A stretch of DNA of 64,000 nt from Omnitrophica bacterium GWA2_41_15 (lineage in GTDB: Bacteria; Omnitrophota; Gorgyraeia; Gygaellales; UBA12090), in assembly GCA_919902675.1 (NCBI GenBank), contig CAKKRH010000007.1, positions 12,942 to 76,941 on the forward strand. The letters run 5' to 3'. The notes under the pieces are model-generated. The model saw only the letters and a list, made by a program, of their open reading frames with translations. It did not search any database and was not told the DNA's origin. A program made the position numbers and the translations under genes. The number at the start of each line of letters is the position of its first letter. Within the stretch, counting starts at the first letter, position 1. Shown here piece after piece: positions 1,873-36,720 of this stretch.

Positions 1873-3135
1873 TTATTTCTTATCCAGGCCAAATTTATGA
1901 TGCAGGGCCCTGAGGGCGGTCTCGGCGGATTTCTTCTTAATGATACAAGAGATGCTTATCTCGGAGGTAGAAATCATCTCAATATTTATCTTTTCCTCAG
2001 CCAGGGTTTCAAACATTTTAGCGGCTACCCCGGAATGAGTTTTCATCCCTACCCCGACTATGGAAATCCTGGCGATATCCGAATCCTCCAACACCTGAAG
2101 CTCTCCCAAACCGCTGGCCAGAGGGCCGTGGTTGGGCTTCCCGCAGCCCAAGCCGCTGGCCGCCTTTTTGGTCAGCTTGATTGCCTTAGCTCCGTCACTT
2201 TTAGGGACGGTGAAAGAAATATCGGTCTGCTTGGTATGCGAAACATTCTGCACAATCATATCCACATTGATGCCGCCCTCTGAAAGCTGAGTGAAAATCC
2301 TGGCGGCGATACCGGGCTTATCCGGGACATCGCACACAGTAATCTTAGACTCATTCTTATTTAAGGTTACCCCGGTAACCAAAACATCTTCCATATTCTT
2401 TACCTCCCTGATAATCATTGTCCCGCGTTTTCGCGAAAATGAGGACCTGACATGTATGGGTACATCAAATTTTTTAGCCACTTCAATTGAGCGCGCCTGC
2501 ATTACCTGCGCGCCAAGAGAGGCCATCTCCAACATCTCATCATAAGTGATGTTTTCAAGTTTACGCGCCATGGGCTCAACACGCGGATCAGCGGTAAATA
2601 TCCCCTCAACATCGGTATAGATCTCGCACTCATCAGCCTCCAGGGTCTTAGCCAGGGCCACCGCGCTTAAATCCGAGCCCCCTCTTCCCAGGGTGGTAAT
2701 ATCCTGCTCCGGGGTCATCCCCTGGAAACCGGCGACAATCACAATCCTGCCTTTTTTTAATTCCTGGCGCAGTTTCTGAGCCTCGATTTTGACAATCCGC
2801 GCCTTGGTGTGCACGGTATCAGTAATAATGCCTACCTGCGAACCGGTTAGGGAAATTGCCTCAGCGCCCAACTCCTGAATGGCCATAGCCAGAAGGGCGA
2901 CTGAAATCTGCTCCCCGGTAGAAAGCAGCATATCCATCTCCCTTTCCGGAGGATTGTCTGAAATCTTAGCGGCCAGCTCAATTAACTCATCAGTAGTATC
3001 TCCCAGGGCCGAGACCACCACCACCAGATCATTGCCTTTTTTCTTATAGTTAACCACCCGGCGAGCCACATTCTTGATTCTTTCAGGATTGGCTACCGAA
3101 GAACCGCCGTATTTCTGCACAATTAACCTTCCCAC
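1873..3135 (-). CDS. lysC: aspartate kinase
   Basis: 420-aa ORF. VQKYGGSSVANPERI and GRGGSDLSAVALA are kinase motifs, followed by two C-terminal ACT-like repeats. Confidence 0.9.
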   Translation of the reverse strand: MGRLIVQKYGGSSVANPERIKNVARRVVNYKKKGNDLVVVVSALGDTTDELIELAAKISDNPPEREMDMLLSTGEQISVALLAMAIQELGAEAISLTGSQVGIITDTVHTKARIVKIEAQKLRQELKKGRIVIVAGFQGMTPEQDITTLGRGGSDLSAVALAKTLEADECEIYTDVEGIFTADPRVEPMARKLENITYDEMLEMASLGAQVMQARSIEVAKKFDVPIHVRSSFSRKRGTMIIREVKNMEDVLVTGVTLNKNESKITVCDVPDKPGIAARIFTQLSEGGINVDMIVQNVSHTKQTDISFTVPKSDGAKAIKLTKKAASGLGCGKPNHGPLASGLGELQVLEDSDIARISIVGVGMKTHSGVAAKMFETLAEEKINIEMISTSEISISCIIKKKSAETALRALHHKFGLDKK

Positions 3136-3233: not shown

Positions 3234-4427
3234 CTATATTTCTTGCTCTTTGACCAGCCTGTCCATCAGGATATGGGCCTGGTCCAGGAATATGCCGCTT
3301 TTCTTGGCCTGGGCCTCGTTAAATCCTTCCAAACCACAAGGAGAAATGCCTTTTCCGTACATCGCGAAACAAATACTGTCGGCAGTATGGGTGCGCAATG
3401 CCAGAGGCGTGGCGTGGTCAGGCAGAAGAAGGATTCTAAAATCACCCTTCTTTTTTAAGGCCTCTAAAATTGTTCCTACCACTAATTGATCAAACCTCTC
3501 AATAGCCAGAATCTTCTCCCGCATATTACCGTTATGGGAGGCCTCATCCGGGGCCTCCACATGCAGATAAACCAAGTCTTTAGTTTTAAGCGAGGCTATC
3601 GCCGCCTCGGCCTTTCCCTGGTAATTGGTGTCATAATAACCGGTAGCCCCCTTAACATTCAATACCTCTAATCCCGCTACGCGGCCAATCCCCTTAATCA
3701 AGTCTACCGCCGAAATTACCGAACCGCTTAGTCCATACTTATCTTTAAAACTGACCAAAGACGGCCTCTTTCCCTGGCCCCAAAGCCAAATCATATTCGC
3801 CGGATTCTCTTTTAAGTCAATCCTGACCTGGTTCACCTCGTGCTCAGCTAAAATCTTCACTGACTCCTGCATCAAAGATACCAAAAACTGGGCATCCGGG
3901 CCCTTAGGCAAGTATTTCTTGAATTCCCTGCCGGTAATATCGTGAGGAGGGACACAGCGCGCCTTTAAGCCCTTGGTCTTAAACACCGCCAGGTGCCGAT
4001 AGCTTACGCCGGGATAAAACTTCAACTCCGAAGTGCCTAATTTCTCATCCAAGAATTCAATCAATACCTTAGCCTCTTTGGTAGAGATGTGTCCGGCACT
4101 ATAATCAATAAGCTTGTCCGGGCTTGCCGTAATCAAATTACAGCGAAAGGCAACCTCATCATCCTTAAGCGCAACCCCCAGATTAGCCGCCTCAAACGGA
4201 GCCCGTCCGGAATAATAAACCTTAGGGTCATAGCCGAATATGGCCAGGTTAGCCACATCCGAGGCCGGTGACAACCCTTCAGGGATGGTCCTGACTAATC
4301 CCAGTTTTCCGTTTTTGGCCAGGAAATCCATATTCGGGGTCTTGGCGTATTCCAGAGGAGTTTTATTCCCCAGGCTCTCAATGGGATAATCCCCCATTCC
4401 ATCCCCAACTAAAATAATATATTTCAA
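3234..4427 (-). CDS. cofactor-independent phosphoglycerate mutase family protein (ApgM type); by context a candidate non-orthologous homoserine kinase
   Basis: 397-aa ORF. MKYIILVGDGMGDYP, HVEAPDEASHNG and LLLPDHATP are alkaline-phosphatase-superfamily metal-site motifs typical of archaeal-type iPGM. It lies between lysC and thrC/hom. Confidence 0.8.
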   Translation of the reverse strand: MKYIILVGDGMGDYPIESLGNKTPLEYAKTPNMDFLAKNGKLGLVRTIPEGLSPASDVANLAIFGYDPKVYYSGRAPFEAANLGVALKDDEVAFRCNLITASPDKLIDYSAGHISTKEAKVLIEFLDEKLGTSELKFYPGVSYRHLAVFKTKGLKARCVPPHDITGREFKKYLPKGPDAQFLVSLMQESVKILAEHEVNQVRIDLKENPANMIWLWGQGKRPSLVSFKDKYGLSGSVISAVDLIKGIGRVAGLEVLNVKGATGYYDTNYQGKAEAAIASLKTKDLVYLHVEAPDEASHNGNMREKILAIERFDQLVVGTILEALKKKGDFRILLLPDHATPLALRTHTADSICFAMYGKGISPCGLEGFNEAQAKKSGIFLDQAHILMDRLVKEQEI

Positions 4428-7570: not shown

Positions 7571-7704
7571 AAACCCTAAACCTTAAACTCTAAATCCTAA
7601 ACAAATCTAAAAGCTAAAATCCTAAACCTATGTTTTGAGTTTTGAGTTTATGGTTTTGAGTTTTGAGTTTATGGTTTTGGGTTTGCTTAGAGTTTAGGAT
7701 TTAG
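7571..7704. repeat. long imperfect hairpin built from TAAA(C/T)CC / GG(A/G)TTTA words; member of a 2-copy family
   Basis: The left arm is rich in AAACCCTAAACC/CTAAATCCTAAAC; the right arm holds the complements (GTTTAGGATTTAG, TTAGAGTTT). The core at 7591-7628 matches 23234-23271 at 36/38. Confidence 0.7.
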
Positions 7705-7822: not shown

Positions 7823-8179
7823 TTATTTCTGAGTCTTTAAATAATATCCAACCGTATCGTTAACTATGCCCGCGGACTTGGAATCAATTTCTAAGAACTG
7901 GATCCTGGTATCATAAATCAAATCCTTGACCACCTCTTTTGAATCAATAACCCTTCCGGTTAGATTTATTGCGTCAATAAAAAAGGGAAGCCGTATGTCA
8001 ATAGCCAAAACCGTCCCTAAAGTAAATTCCCGGTTGGTAGTCAACATCATTCCTCCCAGGCTTAAGTTGCGAGTTTGGGAGATATCATAGTTATCCACCT
8101 CAACCTTGACCCGGTAAGACACTACAAACTTTCCTGCCACCCGCGGATGTTTTCTTCTTTCAGATCCGGCGTAACCCAT
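7823..8179 (-). CDS. PilZ domain protein (c-di-GMP receptor family)
   Basis: 118-aa ORF with both PilZ signature motifs: RKHPR (RxxxR) and NLSLGG (D/NxSxxG). Confidence 0.8.
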   Translation of the reverse strand: MGYAGSERRKHPRVAGKFVVSYRVKVEVDNYDISQTRNLSLGGMMLTTNREFTLGTVLAIDIRLPFFIDAINLTGRVIDSKEVVKDLIYDTRIQFLEIDSKSAGIVNDTVGYYLKTQK

Positions 8180-8211
8180 AATTTCACCTCCGCAATGTTT
8201 TGCTTTATAAA

Positions 8212-8283
8212 CCTATCTTTACTGCTTTTCCTCTGTGAACTGTCAACTGTGAACTAAATTGGTCGGGGCGACAGGACTTGAAC
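8212..8283 (-). repeat. 72-bp duplicate of the tRNA-Pro(GGG) 3' end plus its 3' flank (copy 1; copy 2 is 8439-8510)
   Basis: 8212-8283 equals 8439-8510 with one mismatch. It includes TGGTCGGGGCGACAGGACTTGAAC, which is the CCA end, acceptor 3' strand and T-arm. Identity stops inside the T-loop. Confidence 0.85.
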
Positions 8284-8486
8284 TATTCATAGGGGGCCTT
8301 CCTGCCCCCTATGACGCTCCCCTAAAACCTTACGGTTTTAGGCTCGCTGTCACCCCCGTAGCGTAAACAAGGAAGCGTATCTTGGGGGGAAAATCATCTT
8401 TTCCCCCCAAACCCCCTTTTTGTTCAAGTCCTTACTGCCCTATCTTTACTGCTTTCCCTCTGTGAACTGTCAACTGTGAACTAAAT

Positions 8487-8564
8487 TGGTCGGGGCGACA
8501 GGACTTGAACCTGTGACCTCTTGAACCCCATTCAAGTGCTCTAGCCAAACTGAGCCACGCCCCG
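8487..8564 (-). tRNA. tRNA-Pro (anticodon GGG), CCA encoded
   Basis: Hand-folded 78-nt cloverleaf: CGGGGCG/CGCCCCG acceptor, GCTC/GAGC D-stem, CTTGA-ATGGGGT-TCAAG anticodon arm, ACAGG-TTCAAGT-CCTGT T-arm, then ACCA. Confidence 0.9.
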
Positions 8565-9891: not shown

Positions 9892-11013
9892 TCAGCGCCT
9901 GTGGCCGCCTCCATGGCTACCTCCGCCGGCACGCGCTGGAGCGCCGCCGCCTCTATGCTCGCCGCCTCCGGCACGCGCGGGTTTATTTTCACTACGCATT
10001 GAGGCATCCGCCCTATGCTCACCACCTTGTCCCCTGCCGGCTCCGACACCCGCGCCGTGATCTCGGACGCCGCGGTCTTGATGCGCCCGGACATTATCTC
10101 CCAAATTTTCTCTTCTATCCCGGACATCCTCACGCCTATCCCGCCTATCTTCCCGGCGATCAAACTTGTTTTCGGCTTTATCGCGGACATTCTCCTTGCG
10201 GTCAAATCTGTCTTCGGCTCTGTCGGCTTTGTCTTCCAGCCCATCCAACCGGCCGCCATCGTGGGTACGGTCATACACATCTTCTCTCCTATCCCGAACG
10301 TCTTCACTCCTGTCTCGAAAGTCTTCCCGGCGGTCAAACTTGTTTTCGGCTTTATCGGCCTTATCCTCTAACTTGTCTAAGAACCCGCCATCGTGCCTGC
10401 GGTCATAGATATCCTCTCTCTTATCCCGGATATCCTCACGCCTGTCTCGAAAGTCTTCCCGGCGGTCAAACTTGTTTTCGGCTTTATCTCTTAGTCCCGG
10501 TGGCAAATCTCTGCCCGGGGGATTATTCGGGCCGGCTCCGGGAGGATTAAAACCTGATGTTTCCCCCTCTCCCTGTGATTGGTAATCCCTCTTTTCCTGG
10601 CGGGCGCTCTGCAGATCATTTTTAAACTCTTGCCTGGCCTCCTGAAACGCCTGAATATCGCCATGTATCTGTTCAATATTTTCCTGATGGGTTTCTTTAA
10701 ACTGATCTTTCAGGCTCCTGGCTGTCTCATAATCGCCTGACTGTATCGCCTGATGAATCTGATCCTTTAATTGCCGCTCCTCCTGCTTGGCGGCCTGGGC
10801 ATTCTCTGTTATTGATTGACGCTCTTCTTTAAGGGCCTGGCGGTCAGAAATAAACTCCTGCTTCCAGGCGCCTGAGCCTGACGCCTCTTGCGTTCCTACC
10901 GAAGCCTCTGTCTGAGATGCCGCTTCTTCCTGGGCCTGCAATGTTGGAAGCATTCCAATTAGAAAATACAAGCCTAAAGCTCCCACCAATAAAAATAATT
11001 TGTTTGACCTCAT
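9892..11013 (-). CDS. secreted, highly charged repeat protein (Asp/Arg/Glu-rich repeats, Gly/His-rich tail)
   Basis: The likely start MRSNKLFLLVGALGLYFL... is a signal peptide with an LQAQ-type cleavage region. A Q/E-rich helical part follows, then DKAENKFDRREDFRDRREDxRDxREDxYDRxHDGG repeats, then a GGGEHRGGG...GGGHRR tail. No family recognised. Confidence 0.6.
   Translation of the reverse strand: MRSNKLFLLVGALGLYFLIGMLPTLQAQEEAASQTEASVGTQEASGSGAWKQEFISDRQALKEERQSITENAQAAKQEERQLKDQIHQAIQSGDYETARSLKDQFKETHQENIEQIHGDIQAFQEARQEFKNDLQSARQEKRDYQSQGEGETSGFNPPGAGPNNPPGRDLPPGLRDKAENKFDRREDFRDRREDIRDKREDIYDRRHDGGFLDKLEDKADKAENKFDRREDFRDRSEDVRDRREDVYDRTHDGGRLDGLEDKADRAEDRFDRKENVRDKAENKFDRREDRRDRREDVRDRRENLGDNVRAHQDRGVRDHGAGVGAGRGQGGEHRADASMRSENKPARAGGGEHRGGGAPARAGGGSHGGGHRR
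10105..10488 (-). repeat. in-frame tandem coding repeats (132-nt unit, about 2.5 copies plus a partial variant)
   Basis: CCGGCGGTCAAACTTGTTTTCGGCTTTATC recurs at about 10153, 10327 and 10459, with spacings of 174 and 132 nt. This corresponds to the 44-aa DKAENKFDRRED... unit. Confidence 0.8.
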
Positions 11014-11014
11014 T

Positions 11015-11209
11015 TTACTCCTCCTTTCCATCATTCCCCTTATACAGATATTCCCTCATATATACAACCCGCCTCTGAAAACAATCCGCCACAGGCGATA
11101 ACGTTATTGTGCCTTTATAGACTGCCTGGGGCCGATGAATAGTAAAAAGCATCAGCCCGCCTTTGGTAAAAAGTTCCCGCAATTTCAAATTATTCGGATA
11201 GATATTCAT
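11015..11209 (-). CDS. hypothetical 64-aa protein, translationally coupled between two neighbours
   Basis: Its ATG at 11207-11209 lies 1 nt after the upstream stop (11211-11213). Its stop at 11015-11017 lies 1 nt before the downstream MRSNK ATG (11011-11013). No family recognised. Confidence 0.35.
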   Translation of the reverse strand: MNIYPNNLKLRELFTKGGLMLFTIHRPQAVYKGTITLSPVADCFQRRVVYMREYLYKGNDGKEE

Positions 11210-11210
11210 C

Positions 11211-11489
11211 TTACGCCTCGCTCTTCTCCTGGGGAGTTTTTTCTTTATCCTGCTGGTTCATTTTAGATATGGCTTCCTGTATTTTCTTTTTGAGTTCATC
11301 GTCATTTTTTATCCCTACCGCGTTCATTCTGGTCCTGGATAAAAGCTCAGCCATATCCTGAAGAATCTGGGAACGCGAGAGATGTCTGCCGGTAGAAAAC
11401 ATCATATCCTTCTCCAATTTATCCAGGAATTCCAACTCCGCTCTGGTCAGGAAAGTTACCACCCTATGAGTACTCACATTTTTTTTCAT
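11211..11489 (-). CDS. small hypothetical protein, possibly ribbon-helix-helix-like
   Basis: The preferred start MKKNVSTHRVV... at 11489 has AGGAGG 5 nt upstream (the track starts at 11516). The pattern RVVTFLTRAELEFLDKLEKD resembles a beta-strand plus helix RHH N-terminus. This is weak inference only. Confidence 0.45.
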   Translation of the reverse strand: MKKNVSTHRVVTFLTRAELEFLDKLEKDMMFSTGRHLSRSQILQDMAELLSRTRMNAVGIKNDDELKKKIQEAISKMNQQDKEKTPQEKSEA

Positions 11490-11535
11490 TTTCTCCTCCT
11501 GAAGGATGACCCTCATTGGATGATACGATTACAGC

Positions 11536-11652
11536 TTTGATACATTCGGCGGCGTTCAAACCCCGCCCTTTAGGCGGGGAAAGGTTACGCCGCTCTCAGT
11601 ATCAATCCTGAGCAAACCACGGTCTTTAGACCGTGGTGTCGAAGGATTGATT
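11536..11652 (-). mobile_element. 117-bp structured repeat element, copy A (MITE/RPE-like), in the 5' leader of the 11489 gene
   Basis: Its reverse complement matches 36396-36513 with a single 1-nt indel. It holds two stem-internal loop-stem hairpins (TCAATCCT...AGGATTGA around ACCACGGTC-TTTA-GACCGTGGT, and GGCGGCGT...ACGCCGC around CCCCGCCC...GGCGGGG). At this locus it is flanked by the inverted repeat GATACGATTAC (11522-11532) / GTAATCGTATC (11659-11669). Confidence 0.75.
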
Positions 11653-11707
11653 AAAGCGGTAATCGTATCAAGAAAAACTTACCGTGGCTGGTAGGCTATA
11701 TTCAAAC

Positions 11708-11767
11708 AAAAAGCCCTTACGGACTTAGTTTTACCGAACCATAAGGCAAACCTTCCGTAAGGGCTTT
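11708..11767 (-). other. 15-bp perfect stem hairpin with a 30-nt loop in the riboswitch-controlled leader
   Basis: AAAAGCCCTTACGGA ... TCCGTAAGGGCTTTT. Confidence 0.6.
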
Positions 11768-11796
11768 TAAAAAATCTTCTTCCTTAAAACGGCAAT

Positions 11797-11830
11797 AAAA
11801 AAACCCTAAAGGCTGATTTTTTAGGGTTAA
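11797..11830 (-). terminator. intrinsic terminator, likely the expression platform of the c-di-GMP riboswitch
   Basis: Minus strand reads AACCCTAAA-AAATCAGCC-TTTAGGGTT followed by TTTTTTT, immediately 3' of the aptamer. Confidence 0.6.
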
Positions 11831-11840
11831 TTATTGCTTT

Positions 11841-11935
11841 CACCCTTTGGTAACCCCGCTACCCCCTAACCTATGGTCAAGGGACCGGAAGCTTTGCGTC
11901 TTATCCTTACGGATAATTTGCCTTTTTCAAATGGT
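11841..11935 (-). promoter_or_regulatory. c-di-GMP-I (GEMM-I) riboswitch aptamer
   Basis: Minus strand reads GGCAAA-UUAUCC-GUAA-GGAUAA-GACGCAAAGC-UUCCGG...GGGGGUAGCGGGGUUACCAAAGG. This matches the conserved GEMM-I core as I recall it from Vc2: GGCAAA, a GNRA-capped P2, ACGCAAAGC, CCGG, and GUAGCGGGGUUACC. Confidence 0.85.
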
Positions 11936-11974
11936 ATTTCTTGTTTAATTGTCAAAGTGCAAACTTCTAATTAA

Positions 11975-12002
11975 AGTATAACACAAAATTTGAGTTTGTC
12001 AA
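11975..12002 (-). promoter_or_regulatory. sigma70-type promoter driving the c-di-GMP riboswitch leader
   Basis: Minus strand reads CTTGACAA with TTGACA at 11997-12002, a 16-nt spacer, then TATACT (11975-11980). It is about 35 nt upstream of the aptamer. Confidence 0.6.
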
Positions 12003-12021
12003 GGGGGGGGGCGGGTAAATT

Positions 12022-12408
12022 TTATGGAGAAAGACCCAAGATTTTCTTAACCTTGCTTAAGAGCTCCTCAAGGTTAAAGGGCTTTAAGATATAATCTCTG
12101 ATGTCTTCATGGGTCATCAAAGAACGGTTTACATCATTGTCTTTTCCGGTAATTACCACAATCGGCATCTGAGGCGCGCTTCCGGTTAAGGCCCTTAATT
12201 CCTTGATAGCCACCAAGAAAGAAAATCCGTCCATCCGCGGCATCATAATGTCCAATAGCAGTAAATCCGGCTTATTTATCAAAACCTTCTGCAGGCATTC
12301 CTCTCCGTTTGCGGCTGTATCCACCTCATAACCGTTTCTTTCCAAAGCTGTTTTTAAGGTCTGGGAAACCGCGGGATCATCATCCGCTATCAATATTTTC
12401 TTAGCCAT
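12022..12408 (-). CDS. stand-alone response regulator receiver domain (CheY-like)
   Basis: MAKKILIADDDPAV...DLLLLDIMMPRMDGF...ITGK...KPF carries the receiver acidic pocket, phospho-acceptor Asp, and conserved T and K. The track start at 12435 is a TTG; the ATG at 12408 is preferred. Confidence 0.85.
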   Translation of the reverse strand: MAKKILIADDDPAVSQTLKTALERNGYEVDTAANGEECLQKVLINKPDLLLLDIMMPRMDGFSFLVAIKELRALTGSAPQMPIVVITGKDNDVNRSLMTHEDIRDYILKPFNLEELLSKVKKILGLSP

Positions 12409-19437: not shown

Positions 19438-19549
19438 TTAAAAGAAGCAACTCTTAATCCCACTGGTGGCGGGTTTTGTTTAAATCCTTTTCGCCTTACC
19501 TTTGTTGCTTTTCCTCTGTGAACTGTCAACCGTGAACTGTGAACTAATA

Positions 19550-19627
19550 TGGTCGGGGCGACAGGATTTGAACCTGTGGCCTCGTCGTCCCGAACGACGC
19601 GCTCTAGCCAAGCTGAGCCACGCCCCG
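19550..19627 (-). tRNA. tRNA-Pro (anticodon CGG), CCA encoded
   Basis: Hand-folded 78-nt cloverleaf: CGGGGCG acceptor, GCTC/GAGC D-stem, CGTCG-TTCGGGA-CGACG anticodon arm, ACAGG-TTCAAAT-CCTGT T-arm, then ACCA. Confidence 0.9.
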
Positions 19628-23211: not shown

Positions 23212-23324
23212 AAAAACCCCAAATACTAAACCATAAATCCTAAACAAGTCCAAAAGCTAAAATCCTAAACCCAAAACACATGTTTTGAGTTTGTTTAGAA
23301 TTTAGGGTTTCGAGTTTAGGGTTT
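23212..23324. repeat. second copy of the TAAATCC-word long hairpin element (ribH-nusB spacer)
   Basis: The core at 23234-23271 matches 7591-7628 at 36/38. The left arm AAACCCCAAATACTAAACC pairs imperfectly with the right arm GGTTTCGAGTTTAGGGTTT. Confidence 0.7.
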
Positions 23325-25107: not shown

Positions 25108-25204
25108 AAATAAAAATACCCCGTAATTAATCTCCCGGGGCATACACATTTTCGCGCTTTTGAGGCGCAGAATTATTCCGCGATTTTTAGCGCTTTCGCG
25201 GTTT

Positions 25205-25412
25205 CAATCTTCTCTCATCTAGACTTTAACTATCGGTACCGGATTCGCACCGGTTCCTGTCTCGCCGGTTTTGCTTTGCAAAACTGGCGGACTCGCGGAC
25301 TTTACCATGCGCCTTTTTCATATTCATGTTCTTATTCAAAAACTTGAAAAATTAAAAGGTGCGGAGCTCACCGCCGGTCGGGTATTCCACCCTGCCCTGA
25401 AGAATATTTTGA
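25205..25412 (-). promoter_or_regulatory. FMN riboswitch (RFN element)
   Basis: Minus strand reads TTCAGGGCAGGGTGGAATACCCGACCGGCGGTGAGCTCCGCAC ... GGAACCGGTGCGAATCCGGTACCGATAGTTAAAGTCTAGATGAGAGAAG. These are the conserved RFN 5' and 3' halves, upstream of ribBA. Confidence 0.9.
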
Positions 25413-35409: not shown

Positions 35410-35430
35410 TTGCATTTGGCGCGCTACAAT
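35403..35430 (+). promoter_or_regulatory. promoter candidate for the O-antigen-ligase-like gene (short or no leader)
   Basis: Plus strand reads TTGACA (35403-35408), a 16-nt spacer, then TACAAT (35425-35430). The ATG at 35440 is only 9 nt downstream. Confidence 0.5.
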
Positions 35431-35439
35431 TTAAGGATA

Positions 35440-36720
35440 ATGTTTTACGCCATACTCTTATTTATCTTTTACCGGCCCTTTATCTCTTCTTTGTCCTTCC
35501 CGGTTTTAAATTCAGCCTATTCCACCATCTTTCTGCTTTTTCTAATCATCTGGACTATCCTGAAACGCGAAGGCATACAAAAAAACCTCCCGGCAAAACT
35601 AAAGCCACCGCTCATACTCTTCATCCTGTCTCTTATTGTTTCAACCTTATTTTCTCAAAACAAAACCCATAGCCTCCAGGAATTCCCGCAATATCTCATC
35701 GGCCTACTGCTGTTTATGCTCCCGTTCTCATTATCGCCTAAAAACAAAAAGCTCGTCCTTTCAGCCATTATCCTTGCCGGATTAGGCATAAGCCTGCTGG
35801 CTATTTACCAGTATTTATTTGGCTTTGAATATATCCTTGATTATTTAGCCAAAGAAAACACTCCTTCCGCCGGCCTCATCACTTACCTTAGCCAAAGACG
35901 GGCCTTCCTGCCTTTTATCAGCCCAAATACCTTAGCCGGATACCTGATAATGATTATACCCCTAAGCCTGGCCTTTAAAAAGCGGATTTTCTTCATTTTA
36001 CCCCTGGGGCTAGCTTTATTACTCACCAAATCCTTAGGAGCGCTTTTTAGCCTATTCATAGGATCAATGCTATACTTTTACCTAAATAACCAAAAGGGCA
36101 GGCGGAAAATTGCCCTACTTTGCGGTTTCTCGGTGATTATCCTGCTGATTTTTCTTCTTCGCCAAAATAGCGGCTCTCAATTCAACCAACCCGGATTCTC
36201 ATTGCTAAGGCGCTGGGATTATTGGAAGGAAACTGTTGAAATTATAAAGCTTTTCCCCTTTTTGGGGGTGGGATTGGGGGCTCTACATCTCAGCCAGGTC
36301 AGATATGCCCACAACTGCTATTTGCAAATCTGGGCGGAGATGGGAATATTCGGAATCGCTTCTTTCTTTTGGTTGATAGCTGAAACCTATAGTTTAATCA
36401 ATCCTTCGACACCACGGTCTAAAGACCGTGGTTTGCTCAGGATTGATACTGAGAGCGGCGTAACCTTTCCCCGCCCTAAAGGGCGGGGTTTGAACGCCGC
36501 CGAATGTATCAAACGCGATTTTCTAAACAAAAAAAATATTTCTGTATTATCTGCCGCGATATTCACCTTTATCATCCATAATCTGGTTGATTTTACTTTT
36601 TCTCTGCCTGAAACAAGTTTCATCTGGTGGATAATCTTCGGTACCTACATCTCTCTCCATGAGCCTAAAACTACCGCAACATTTGTTGACGGCGGGGGTG
36701 TGCCCGTAACCCTCAGCTGA
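35440..36720 (+). CDS. O-antigen ligase/polymerase-family membrane protein (Wzy_C-like) carrying an in-frame repeat-element insertion
   Basis: Polytopic protein. YAHNCYLQIWAEMGIFG matches the O-antigen-ligase-domain core. The frame stays open through the 36396-36513 element, and TM-like sequence resumes after it (AAIFTFIIHNLVDFTFSLPETSFIWWIIFG). The track start at 35410 is a TTG. Confidence 0.7.
   Translation: MFYAILLFIFYRPFISSLSFPVLNSAYSTIFLLFLIIWTILKREGIQKNLPAKLKPPLILFILSLIVSTLFSQNKTHSLQEFPQYLIGLLLFMLPFSLSPKNKKLVLSAIILAGLGISLLAIYQYLFGFEYILDYLAKENTPSAGLITYLSQRRAFLPFISPNTLAGYLIMIIPLSLAFKKRIFFILPLGLALLLTKSLGALFSLFIGSMLYFYLNNQKGRRKIALLCGFSVIILLIFLLRQNSGSQFNQPGFSLLRRWDYWKETVEIIKLFPFLGVGLGALHLSQVRYAHNCYLQIWAEMGIFGIASFFWLIAETYSLINPSTPRSKDRGLLRIDTESGVTFPRPKGRGLNAAECIKRDFLNKKNISVLSAAIFTFIIHNLVDFTFSLPETSFIWWIIFGTYISLHEPKTTATFVDGGGVPVTLS
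36396..36513 (+). mobile_element. structured repeat element, copy B, inserted in frame in a coding sequence
   Basis: Near-identical (one 1-nt indel) to the reverse complement of 11536-11652. It is translated as about 39 residues, ...NPSTPRSKDRGLLRIDTESGVTFPRPKGRGLNAAECIK..., between hydrophobic segments. Confidence 0.75.

Follow-up and report, generated by a model that had tools for sequence, protein, structure and literature searches.

The minus strand of a 64,000-nucleotide (nt) stretch of contig CAKKRH010000007.1 from Omnitrophica bacterium GWA2_41_15, referred to here as the window and numbered from its first nucleotide, carries a class I riboswitch for cyclic dimeric guanosine monophosphate (class c-di-GMP-I, or GEMM-I) upstream of a gene for a protein of 92 amino acids (aa). 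Both the aptamer and its association with this gene are held to be real with high confidence. As judged from sequence and predicted folds, the element is probably a transcriptional switch, most likely of OFF polarity when c-di-GMP is high, in which two intrinsic terminators act one after the other and the second of them (T2) appears to carry the main switching sequence; the platform would then be more than the 9-base-pair (bp) hairpin to which a preliminary description of the region had drawn attention. The wider claim of that description, i.e., that a GEMM-I riboswitch has a promoter to itself and a platform of the intrinsic-terminator type, was supported, the aptamer being identified by a match to Rfam clan CL00126 and by a covariance model built for this analysis. 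The features that define the promoter, the aptamer and the flanking genes are as follows.

12435-12022, minus strand: stand-alone receiver-domain gene (Pfam Response_reg), directly upstream of the riboswitch promoter
11975..12002, minus strand: predicted sigma-70-type promoter, -35 TTGACA at 12002-11997, 16-nt spacer, -10 TATACT at 11980-11975
11938..11968, minus strand: 5' leader upstream of P1, 31 nt, nearly invariant in the two closest relatives
11841..11937, minus strand: c-di-GMP-I class aptamer, identified by Rfam, the new covariance model and covariation
11935-11928 / 11849-11842, minus strand: aptamer helix P1, ACCAUUUG / CAAAGGGU
11916-11901, minus strand: aptamer helix P2, UUAUCC-GUAA-GGAUAA, with a GUAA cap
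roughly 11891-11851, minus strand: aptamer helix P3
11211..11500, minus strand: regulated gene with Shine-Dalgarno sequence AGGAGGAG at 11500-11493, ATG at 11489 and stop at 11211, 92 aa

The conserved aptamer segments noted in the preliminary description, i.e., GGCAAA, a GUAA-capped P2, GACGCAAAGC, CCGG and GUAGCGGGGUUACC, were all present on the minus strand. Elements of the GGCAAA type are conserved features of GEMM-I, for which a terminator platform is a common arrangement. Scanning with Rfam models (cmscan) gave one riboswitch match for the region at gathering thresholds, to RF03167 (c-di-GMP-I-GGC) at 11931-11845 of the minus strand, and the score of 63.1 bits (gathering score 59, E = 1.5e-12) places the aptamer in clan CL00126. 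The cmscan output was that of the best family per clan, and RF01051 was masked by its sister RF03167. The new covariance model, built from 14 relatives that were all RF01051 by Rfam and with the window left out, found a single match across the 64 kb, at 11937-11841 (77.9 bits, E = 2.5e-19). A consensus structure of 30 orthologous aptamers (RNAalifold) contained 15 pairs, 13 of them with compensatory double changes, and P1, P2 and P3 were all formed in the minimum-energy fold of 11936-11841, the P2 hairpin being weak (-5.3 kcal/mol).

The aptamer is read as an ordinary c-di-GMP-I binder, with c-di-GMP as its predicted ligand, rather than as a GGC variant, because of a canonical A in the ligand pocket, a flip of Rfam model between relatives and the 77.9-bit score against a model made from RF01051 relatives. 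The RF03167 consensus, GACGCGAAgC, has a G after GACGC, at the equivalent of position 47, which in the window is replaced by the canonical A (GACGCAAAGC) with a blank in the match line; CGCAAAGC was present at this segment in almost all orthologs, and by this mark the window falls outside c-di-GMP-I-GGC. The flip of model was noted between L001 and L011, the closest relatives of the window, in which the 92-aa protein has homologs of about 90% identity, the aptamer of L011 being assigned to RF01051 (68.0 bits, gathering score 35) and the near-identical aptamer of L001 to RF03167 (59.0 bits). A ligand other than c-di-GMP, sensed by a true GGC variant or by a GEMM-Ib type sensor of 3',3'-cyclic GMP-AMP (3',3'-cGAMP), is very improbable: the top score of RF03167 is what favours it, and opposed to this are the canonical A of window and orthologs, the switching of models between near-identical sequences, the base at the equivalent of position 20 (below) and the repeated fusion of the regulated domain to PilZ, a c-di-GMP receptor. 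We know of no established ligand for the c-di-GMP-I-GGC variant.

In Vc2 numbering, transferred by means of the Rfam structure line, the pocket nucleotides G20, A47 and C92 correspond to 11922, 11895 and 11850 and were canonical in the window and in essentially all of about 33 orthologs. In Vc2, one of the two guanines of the ligand is recognised by G20, and the other pairs with C92 and is contacted by A47 (PMC5888326, PMC6140456); an A at position 20 is the mark of cGAMP sensors (PMC6140456). The window has AAAAAGGCAAA, with a G rather than an A at the unpaired position before the G-C pair, which sets it apart from the GEMM-Ib sensors of 3',3'-cGAMP.

The promoter proposed in the preliminary description, TTGACA and TATACT separated by 16 nt, was present on the minus strand at 12002-11975 and matched the consensus at 11 of 12 positions, in addition to which there was an extended -10 TG at 11983-11982 (TGtTATACT, 11983-11975). 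A scan of 2.5 kb gave 4 such sites compared with 4.4 expected by chance, so the match by itself is not significant. Support for a separate promoter came from alignment with the two closest relatives, in which identity started exactly at CCCCTTGACA and was near-unbroken through the 5' segment, whereas DNA from the stop codon of the receiver gene to the -35 could not be aligned. This onset of conservation is taken as the phylogenetic footprint of a real promoter, from which transcription would presumably start near 11968. The same comparison bears on whether the hairpins described below are instead terminators of the receiver gene (stop at 12022), with the aptamer in its 3' untranslated region. 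No terminator was present between the receiver stop codon and the promoter, and the gene order is shared with L001 and L011, but the promoter is conserved where the sequence preceding it is not, and the aptamer travels with the downstream gene where upstream genes differ, which makes this alternative scarcely credible.

The association of the aptamer with the downstream gene was evident across Omnitrophota. An identical 92-aa protein is on record from a Candidatus Omnitrophota metagenome-assembled genome, and its 112 close homologs, mostly from Omnitrophota, are all unnamed or "hypothetical". A family profile scan of species-representative genomes gave 42 loci, 40 of which were scanned with Rfam models; 33 of these 40 had a clan CL00126 aptamer upstream of the homolog, at a distance of 68-316 nt and in the same orientation. 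The new model added L042 (87.7 bits), L010 (44 bits), L041 (cut by a contig end), L031 (31 bits) and, weakly, L025 (23.5 bits), bringing the number of Omnitrophota loci with an aptamer upstream of the homolog to 36-38 of 42. Two of the remaining four are at a contig end and one is N-masked upstream, leaving only L015 without an aptamer; a stand-alone gene behind a c-di-GMP riboswitch is thus nearly universal in this phylum. Since other neighbours were conserved only in the closest relatives (L001 and L011, partly L002), the aptamer and the small gene form a conserved unit. The literature, as searched, contained nothing on c-di-GMP riboswitches in Omnitrophota.

At some loci, aptamers were found close together. 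Those of L012, at 2497-2666 (minus strand), 2827-2926 (plus strand) and 3263-3348 (plus strand), are clustered within 1 kb, and similar arrangements were noted in L014 and L033; one clustered aptamer is divergent and precedes a gene for a 351-aa secreted protein, one precedes the small gene and one precedes a gene for a 92-aa secreted protein. Such clusters suggest a local c-di-GMP regulon.

Predicted serial terminators and switch

Two hairpins, each followed by a U-run, lie between the aptamer and the gene, together with a segment that is complementary to the aptamer.

11795..11837, minus strand: predicted terminator T1 (weak), stem AACCCUAAA / UUUAGGGUU at 11828-11820 / 11810-11802, then a U-run
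11742..11792, minus strand: putative switching (antiterminator) segment, comprising the post-T1 spacer, the T2 5' arm and GGUUUGCCUU (11752-11743) inside T2
11700..11768, minus strand: predicted terminator T2 (strong), 15-bp stem AAAAGCCCUUACGGA / UCCGUAAGGGCUUUU at 11768-11754 / 11723-11709

Both hairpins contain G+C pairs and together they make up a predicted dual terminator. The core hairpin of T1 (-8.5 kcal/mol), to which an optional outer stem (GCAAUAA / UUAUUGC) may be added, was identical in the two closest relatives. Of the 9-bp stem and U7 previously attributed to it, the stem was found as described, but the run of seven U (11803-11797) includes two that close the stem, so that T1 consists either of 9 bp followed by U5AUU or of 7 bp followed by U7. 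T2, also conserved in L001 and L011, has a 30-nt interior, the tail UGUUUGAAU and a predicted energy of -29.5 kcal/mol; its stem is followed by UGUUUG, and the run becomes UUUUUGUUUG when the stem-closing U's are counted. A hairpin with a 15-bp stem had been noted before as an oddity of the leader; the hairpin is present and is read here as a second, stronger terminator. In most related leaders, a terminator scan placed one terminator immediately behind the aptamer, and in at least 17 of 33 another terminator-like hairpin came after it.

T1 begins 14 nt past P1, and neither terminator stem shares nucleotides with the aptamer. Complementarity between them was nevertheless extensive, segment 11792-11742 being complementary to aptamer positions 11925-11896, i.e., to J1/2, the whole of P2 and the start of J2/3. 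The energy of this pairing (RNAduplex) was -30.2 kcal/mol compared with -14.4 +/- 2.7 kcal/mol for shuffled leaders, none of 1000 shuffles reaching the observed value, and the same excess of complementarity between the aptamer and the T2 side was noted in L001 and L011. On the T1 side, GCCUUU at the junction of the loop and the 3' arm is complementary to AAAGGC of the aptamer, and AGGGU of the P1 3' strand can pair with ACCCU of the T1 5' arm.

Comparable complementarity was found at other loci. Of 32 downstream leaders, 14 contained a perfect complement, 8 nt or longer, to the J1/2 core AAGGCAAAC, with L001 and L011 having one too, and 8 contained a complement to the J2/3 core GACGCAAAGCU, whereas in the control, i.e., the 70 nt upstream of the same aptamers, a complement of at least 7 nt was present in 1 of 32. 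The complements tracked the variable first bases of P2 (CUC/GAG in L019-L024, CCA/UGG in L017 and CU/AG in L005) and were located in apical loops or arms of terminators across loci. GUUUGCC occurred 11 times in the 128 kb of both strands, a frequency of about chance, and its occurrences in leaders are therefore specific. A relay between the T1 3' arm and the T2 5' arm was possible in the window and in L005 and was dropped as a general feature, the stems being unrelated in L019-type leaders.

A cotranscriptional picture was obtained from minimum-energy folds of successive 5' transcript prefixes. In prefixes that ended before the T1 3' arm, AGGGU of the P1 3' strand was paired with ACCCU of T1; in those that ended just before the T2 3' arm, the pairing of aptamer and T2 was the minimum-energy structure; and once the 3' arms were present, the terminators won. 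What connects the aptamer to the terminators is complementarity and not a stretch of nucleotides in common, so that locking of the aptamer would free the terminators, which gives the switch its predicted OFF polarity. In the proposed course of events, transcription from the promoter at 12002-11975 would begin some 37 nt upstream of the aptamer. Without ligand, J1/2 and the weak P2 hairpin would be open to invasion, AGGGU of the P1 3' strand and AAAGGC could hold parts of the weak T1, and the spacer and T2 5' half (11792-11742) would pair with aptamer positions 11925-11896 as the polymerase proceeds, leaving T2 unformed when the polymerase is at its U-run and allowing the mRNA for the 92-aa protein to be completed. 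With c-di-GMP bound, the aptamer would be locked, both terminators would fold and transcripts would end at T1 or, failing that, at T2, an arrangement of two serial terminators that should tighten the OFF state.

Riboswitches of the c-di-GMP-I class with either polarity are established, and hairpins of the distal leader adjoin the Shine-Dalgarno sequence, as might be expected of an ON switch, in which the ligand would relieve termination, or of a translational switch, in which it would open the ribosome-binding site. The Bc1 riboswitch is reported to act on transcription and translation in opposite directions (PMC11218506). Such a switch is nonetheless decidedly unlikely in the present case: with no nucleotides shared between the aptamer and the terminator stems, and complementarity shared in their place, folding of the aptamer would free the terminators and not block them, and folding predicted no strong sequestration of the Shine-Dalgarno sequence.

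Several observations weigh against the serial OFF switch. The full-length leader at equilibrium was predicted to contain the aptamer, T1 and T2 with or without ligand, so the switching model depends on kinetic control, and the candidate pairings that would oppose T1 are short, at 5-6 bp. In the 5' leader, GUUUGCACUUUG (11964-11953) was paired with the aptamer core in minimum-energy prefix folds and could interfere with it, complementarity upstream of the aptamer not being general (1 of 32 loci). In both L001 and L011, the P1 5' strand is separated from J1/2 by a 50-nt insertion, which puts the working of their aptamers in question. No GGDEF motif was found in the open reading frames (ORFs) of the window, i.e., in 64 kb of a genome of about 2.2 Mb. 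The main caution comes by analogy from Bc1 of Bacillus thuringiensis, in which the switch, owing to its dual terminator, did not respond to c-di-GMP either in vitro or in vivo (PMC11218506); a double terminator would thus be no guarantee of regulation.

The Bc1 precedent is the starting point for an alternative in which the aptamer is real and the platform constitutive or decoupled, with T2 ending almost every transcript whether or not ligand is present. Expression of the gene would then be basal and low, would come from a promoter so far unrecognised or would be controlled at another level through the distal leader (11695-11678 and hairpin H3, see below). The great stability of T2, the presence of both terminators in equilibrium folds and about 220 nt of conserved, unexplained leader past T2 are all consistent with this. 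The alternative is unlikely but carries some weight; the aptamer and the T2 5' half are complementary over 30 nt, in statistical excess and with covariation across loci, which is hard to explain without switching, the aptamer-gene pair has been kept in 36-38 of 42 loci across the phylum, and the promoter scan gave no site of sigma-70 type from T2 to the ATG.

The regulated 92-aa protein and its relatives

The 92-aa protein had no sequence match in Pfam, NCBIfam or PDB, and one weak match to RHH_3 (E = 0.049) was noted among 32 family members. An AlphaFold monomer (predicted local distance difference test score 70.5) consisted of an extended N-terminus followed by helices at residues 16-33, 39-53 and 63-83, and a Foldseek comparison of this model with PDB gave nothing below E = 1. 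With its pattern HRVVTFLTREELEFLDKL ... SRSQILQDMAELL, the protein conforms to the strand-helix-helix register known from ribbon-helix-helix proteins, and alignment by hhalign with sequences of NikR-N and CopG gave the expected register weakly (E = 0.09 and 0.047, respectively). With low to moderate confidence, based on sequence pattern and model, the protein may be considered a ribbon-helix-helix DNA binder.

The connection of this family with c-di-GMP was also evident from domain fusions. A profile search of 1.84 billion representative proteins gave 221 relatives, and fusions were judged in the 27 of at least 180 aa among the top 150. In 22 of these 27 long homologs, the domain was N-terminal and was followed by PilZ; in three (P0221, P0203 and P0242), a receiver domain was N-terminal; and in two there was no second Pfam domain. 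The RxxxR and D/NxSxxG motifs were visible in seven aligned PilZ-bearing fusions, and one locus (L023) combined a PilZ fusion with an upstream aptamer (75.1 bits). A PilZ protein is also encoded in the window.

7823-8179, minus strand: stand-alone PilZ protein of 118 aa (45.8 bits for PF07238), motifs ERRKHPR and NLSLGG

From its sequence, this protein indicates that the organism also has protein receptors for c-di-GMP, and the receiver gene upstream of the riboswitch, together with the receiver fusions found elsewhere, could reflect a functional partnership. These findings suggest that the domain probably behaves as a signalling output module whose tie to c-di-GMP is through RNA, through protein or through both. 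A broader proposal is offered tentatively: an output domain for signalling that has so far gone unrecognised, and that is most likely a DNA binder of the ribbon-helix-helix type, may have its founding member in the 92-aa protein and be wired to upstream signals in three interchangeable ways, i.e., by riboswitch, by C-terminal PilZ and by N-terminal receiver, in which case the riboswitch, with two hairpins aimed at two pocket junctions, might be the main transcriptional c-di-GMP switch of the phylum and the protein its master regulator.

The distal leader and other features of the window

The leader extends for 479 nt from the presumed start near 11968 to the ATG at 11489, in agreement with the length of about 480 nt given in the preliminary description. 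It consists of a 5' segment of about 31 nt, an aptamer of about 97 nt, about 140 nt occupied by T1, a spacer and T2, and a 3' part of about 220 nt past T2 that contains a conserved motif, hairpin H3, a short hairpin and the ribosome-binding site. Its length is largely explained by the double terminator, a conserved hairpin and a lineage-specific insertion of about 120 nt.

11678..11695, minus strand: conserved motif CCUACCAGCCACGGUAAG, after the last terminator, once in the window
11521..11670, minus strand: hairpin H3, 16-bp stem UGAUACGAUUACCGCU / AGCUGUAAUCGUAUCA at 11670-11655 / 11536-11521, with the repeat in its apical loop
11536..11655, minus strand: nested-palindrome repeat of about 120 nt, with a second copy at 36393-36513 (plus strand)

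Motifs of the CCAGCCACGG type were found at the same relative position in ten leaders (the window, L001, L003, L004, L005, L008, L010, L011, L018 and L033). In long leaders the motif took the form CC(A/U)(A/C)CAGCCACGG(U)AAGG and was often followed by a G+C-rich hairpin and CCUGGAGG. Scanning and inspection gave no convincing match to an internal promoter, a sigma-54 site or an extracytoplasmic function (ECF) sigma factor site at the motif; small upstream ORFs after it were inconsistent between loci, and only weak, inconsistent pairings with the Shine-Dalgarno region were seen. A very basic mini-ORF (e.g., MRKTRRSVTHKRGRRHHKKELGFF...) with its own Shine-Dalgarno sequence was noted between the terminator and the homolog in L027, L029 and L033 and in fused form in L003. 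In the leaders of L003 and L008, a palindromic insert, CCCCGUYAGAAA...UUUCUAACGGGG, interrupts the CCAGCC motif, and the L008 copy is flanked by duplicated CCAGC.

The H3 stem was kept, with changes on both sides, in L001 (CAAUAUAGUUAUCGCU / AGCGGUAAUUAUAUUG) and L011, and its loop was 32 nt in the former, 7 nt in the latter and occupied by the repeat in the window. This repeat, described earlier as an element of 117 bp, is real: 11655-11536 of the minus strand matched 36393-36513 of the plus strand at 99% over 121 nt. It was absent at this site in L001 and L011 and was predicted to fold into two nested hairpin domains (-57.9 kcal/mol). Its 20-nt central palindrome was found in 115 metagenome contigs, about 12 of which carry the whole element; the flanks of these full-length copies were unrelated to those of the window, their stems had changes on both sides, and additional hairpins were nested in them. 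Multiple near-identical copies thus occur at unrelated sites, as in a dispersed repeat, and the flanks of the 12 copies contained no consistent target-site duplication or classical terminal inverted repeat. The repeat is thus a dispersed and probably mobile structured element that landed in a tolerant loop.

The second copy in the window lies inside an ORF at 35410-36720 that encodes a 436-aa O-antigen-ligase-like protein (Pfam Wzy_C). It keeps the reading frame and contributes about 41 residues (LINPSTPRSKDRGLLRIDTESGVTFPRPKGRGLNAAECIK), beyond which there are further plausible membrane segments. The 50-nt insertion in the aptamers of the closest relatives (L001 2605-2654 and the same place in L011), which is absent from the window, consists of two UCCCGC...GCGGGA hairpins and resembles a module nested in a metagenomic copy of the repeat (L152/L059). 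Small nested-palindrome insertions of this kind, in leader hairpin loops and, in relatives, beside the aptamer, inform on the tolerance of the leader to insertions. A permissive search of 11400-12100 with other Rfam families gave matches at chance level only (e.g., His_leader at 25 bits, gathering score 49), which leaves T2, the repeat and the motif outside the known RNA families.

Several features at other positions were also noted. A flavin mononucleotide (FMN) riboswitch (RF00050, 88.1 bits) is present at 25203-25408 on the minus strand, with two variable stem-loops enlarged to 66 and 22 nt compared with 12 and 10 nt in the model. Two tRNA genes on the minus strand, at 8490-8564 and 19553-19627, are about 83% identical over the tRNA, and both (regions 8191-8564 and 19474-19627) adjoin a repeated segment of about 65 nt with CTGTGAACTGTCAACTGTGAACT, of which there is a third, partial copy at 8191-8337. 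The gene next downstream of the regulated gene (9892-11034, minus strand) encodes a 380-aa secreted protein with highly charged repeats (DRREDFRDRREDIRDKREDIYDRRHDGG...) that is conserved only in the closest relatives. Stretches of about 70 nt rich in CCCTAAA-like units (AAACCCTAAACCTTAAACTCTAAATCCTAAAC...) at 7571-7642 and 23214-23292 are about 85% identical.

Comparison with known systems

The repeat of about 120 nt is similar to small non-autonomous palindromic repeats such as miniature inverted-repeat transposable elements and repetitive extragenic palindromic (REP)-like elements in that it is highly structured and dispersed at unrelated sites but differs from them in lacking any visible target-site duplication or classical terminal inverted repeat. 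Rickettsia palindromic elements sit in frame in genes, and in this respect are similar to the present repeat, one copy of which is in an ORF without breaking it.

The riboswitch belongs to a well-known class to which the aptamer itself adds little, and the most interesting outcome is the gene family that it controls. The aptamer resembles Vc2 of Vibrio cholerae (RF01051) in its three helices, its GNRA-capped P2, the segments GGCAAA, GACGCAAAGC and GGGGUUACC, and the canonical G20, A47 and C92; the two differ in host, the present one being from Omnitrophota, in the regulated gene family and in the slightly better score obtained here with the sister model in Rfam. The variant represented by that sister model, RF03167, is similar to the window as judged by score but differs from it, and from the orthologs, at the G that follows GACGC in its consensus.

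With regard to the platform, the closest counterpart is Bc1, a riboswitch of the same class from the Bacillus cereus group, the weak-strong dual terminator of which was called "rarely seen" and in which T2 stayed folded and masked the response (PMC11218506). The likeness lies in a long platform with one weak and one strong rho-independent terminator, here predicted, and there is no sequence relation beyond the aptamer. The spacing between T1 and T2 stems is 33 nt in the window as opposed to 28 bp in Bc1. The window offers a second and independent example, here predicted, of a double-terminator platform behind one c-di-GMP-I aptamer, an arrangement described once before, and in contrast with Bc1 its strong terminator carries a complement of about 30 nt to the aptamer, a clear pairing that would place T2 under ligand control.

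The near-invariable aptamer link and the fusions to PilZ and receiver domains mark the unnamed family as a candidate c-di-GMP effector or output module and so as a concrete entry into the c-di-GMP physiology of Omnitrophota. The known protein that invites comparison is CdbA of Myxococcus xanthus, a ribbon-helix-helix receptor for c-di-GMP (PMC7156744). Both are small proteins tied to c-di-GMP signalling, and the strand-helix-helix pattern of the 92-aa protein is compatible with the CdbA fold. In contrast with this similarity, the 92-aa protein resembled no PDB chain in sequence, and CdbA would be among those chains; as far as known, c-di-GMP would act on it by way of the mRNA leader or of a fused PilZ domain and not, as in CdbA, by binding to it directly.

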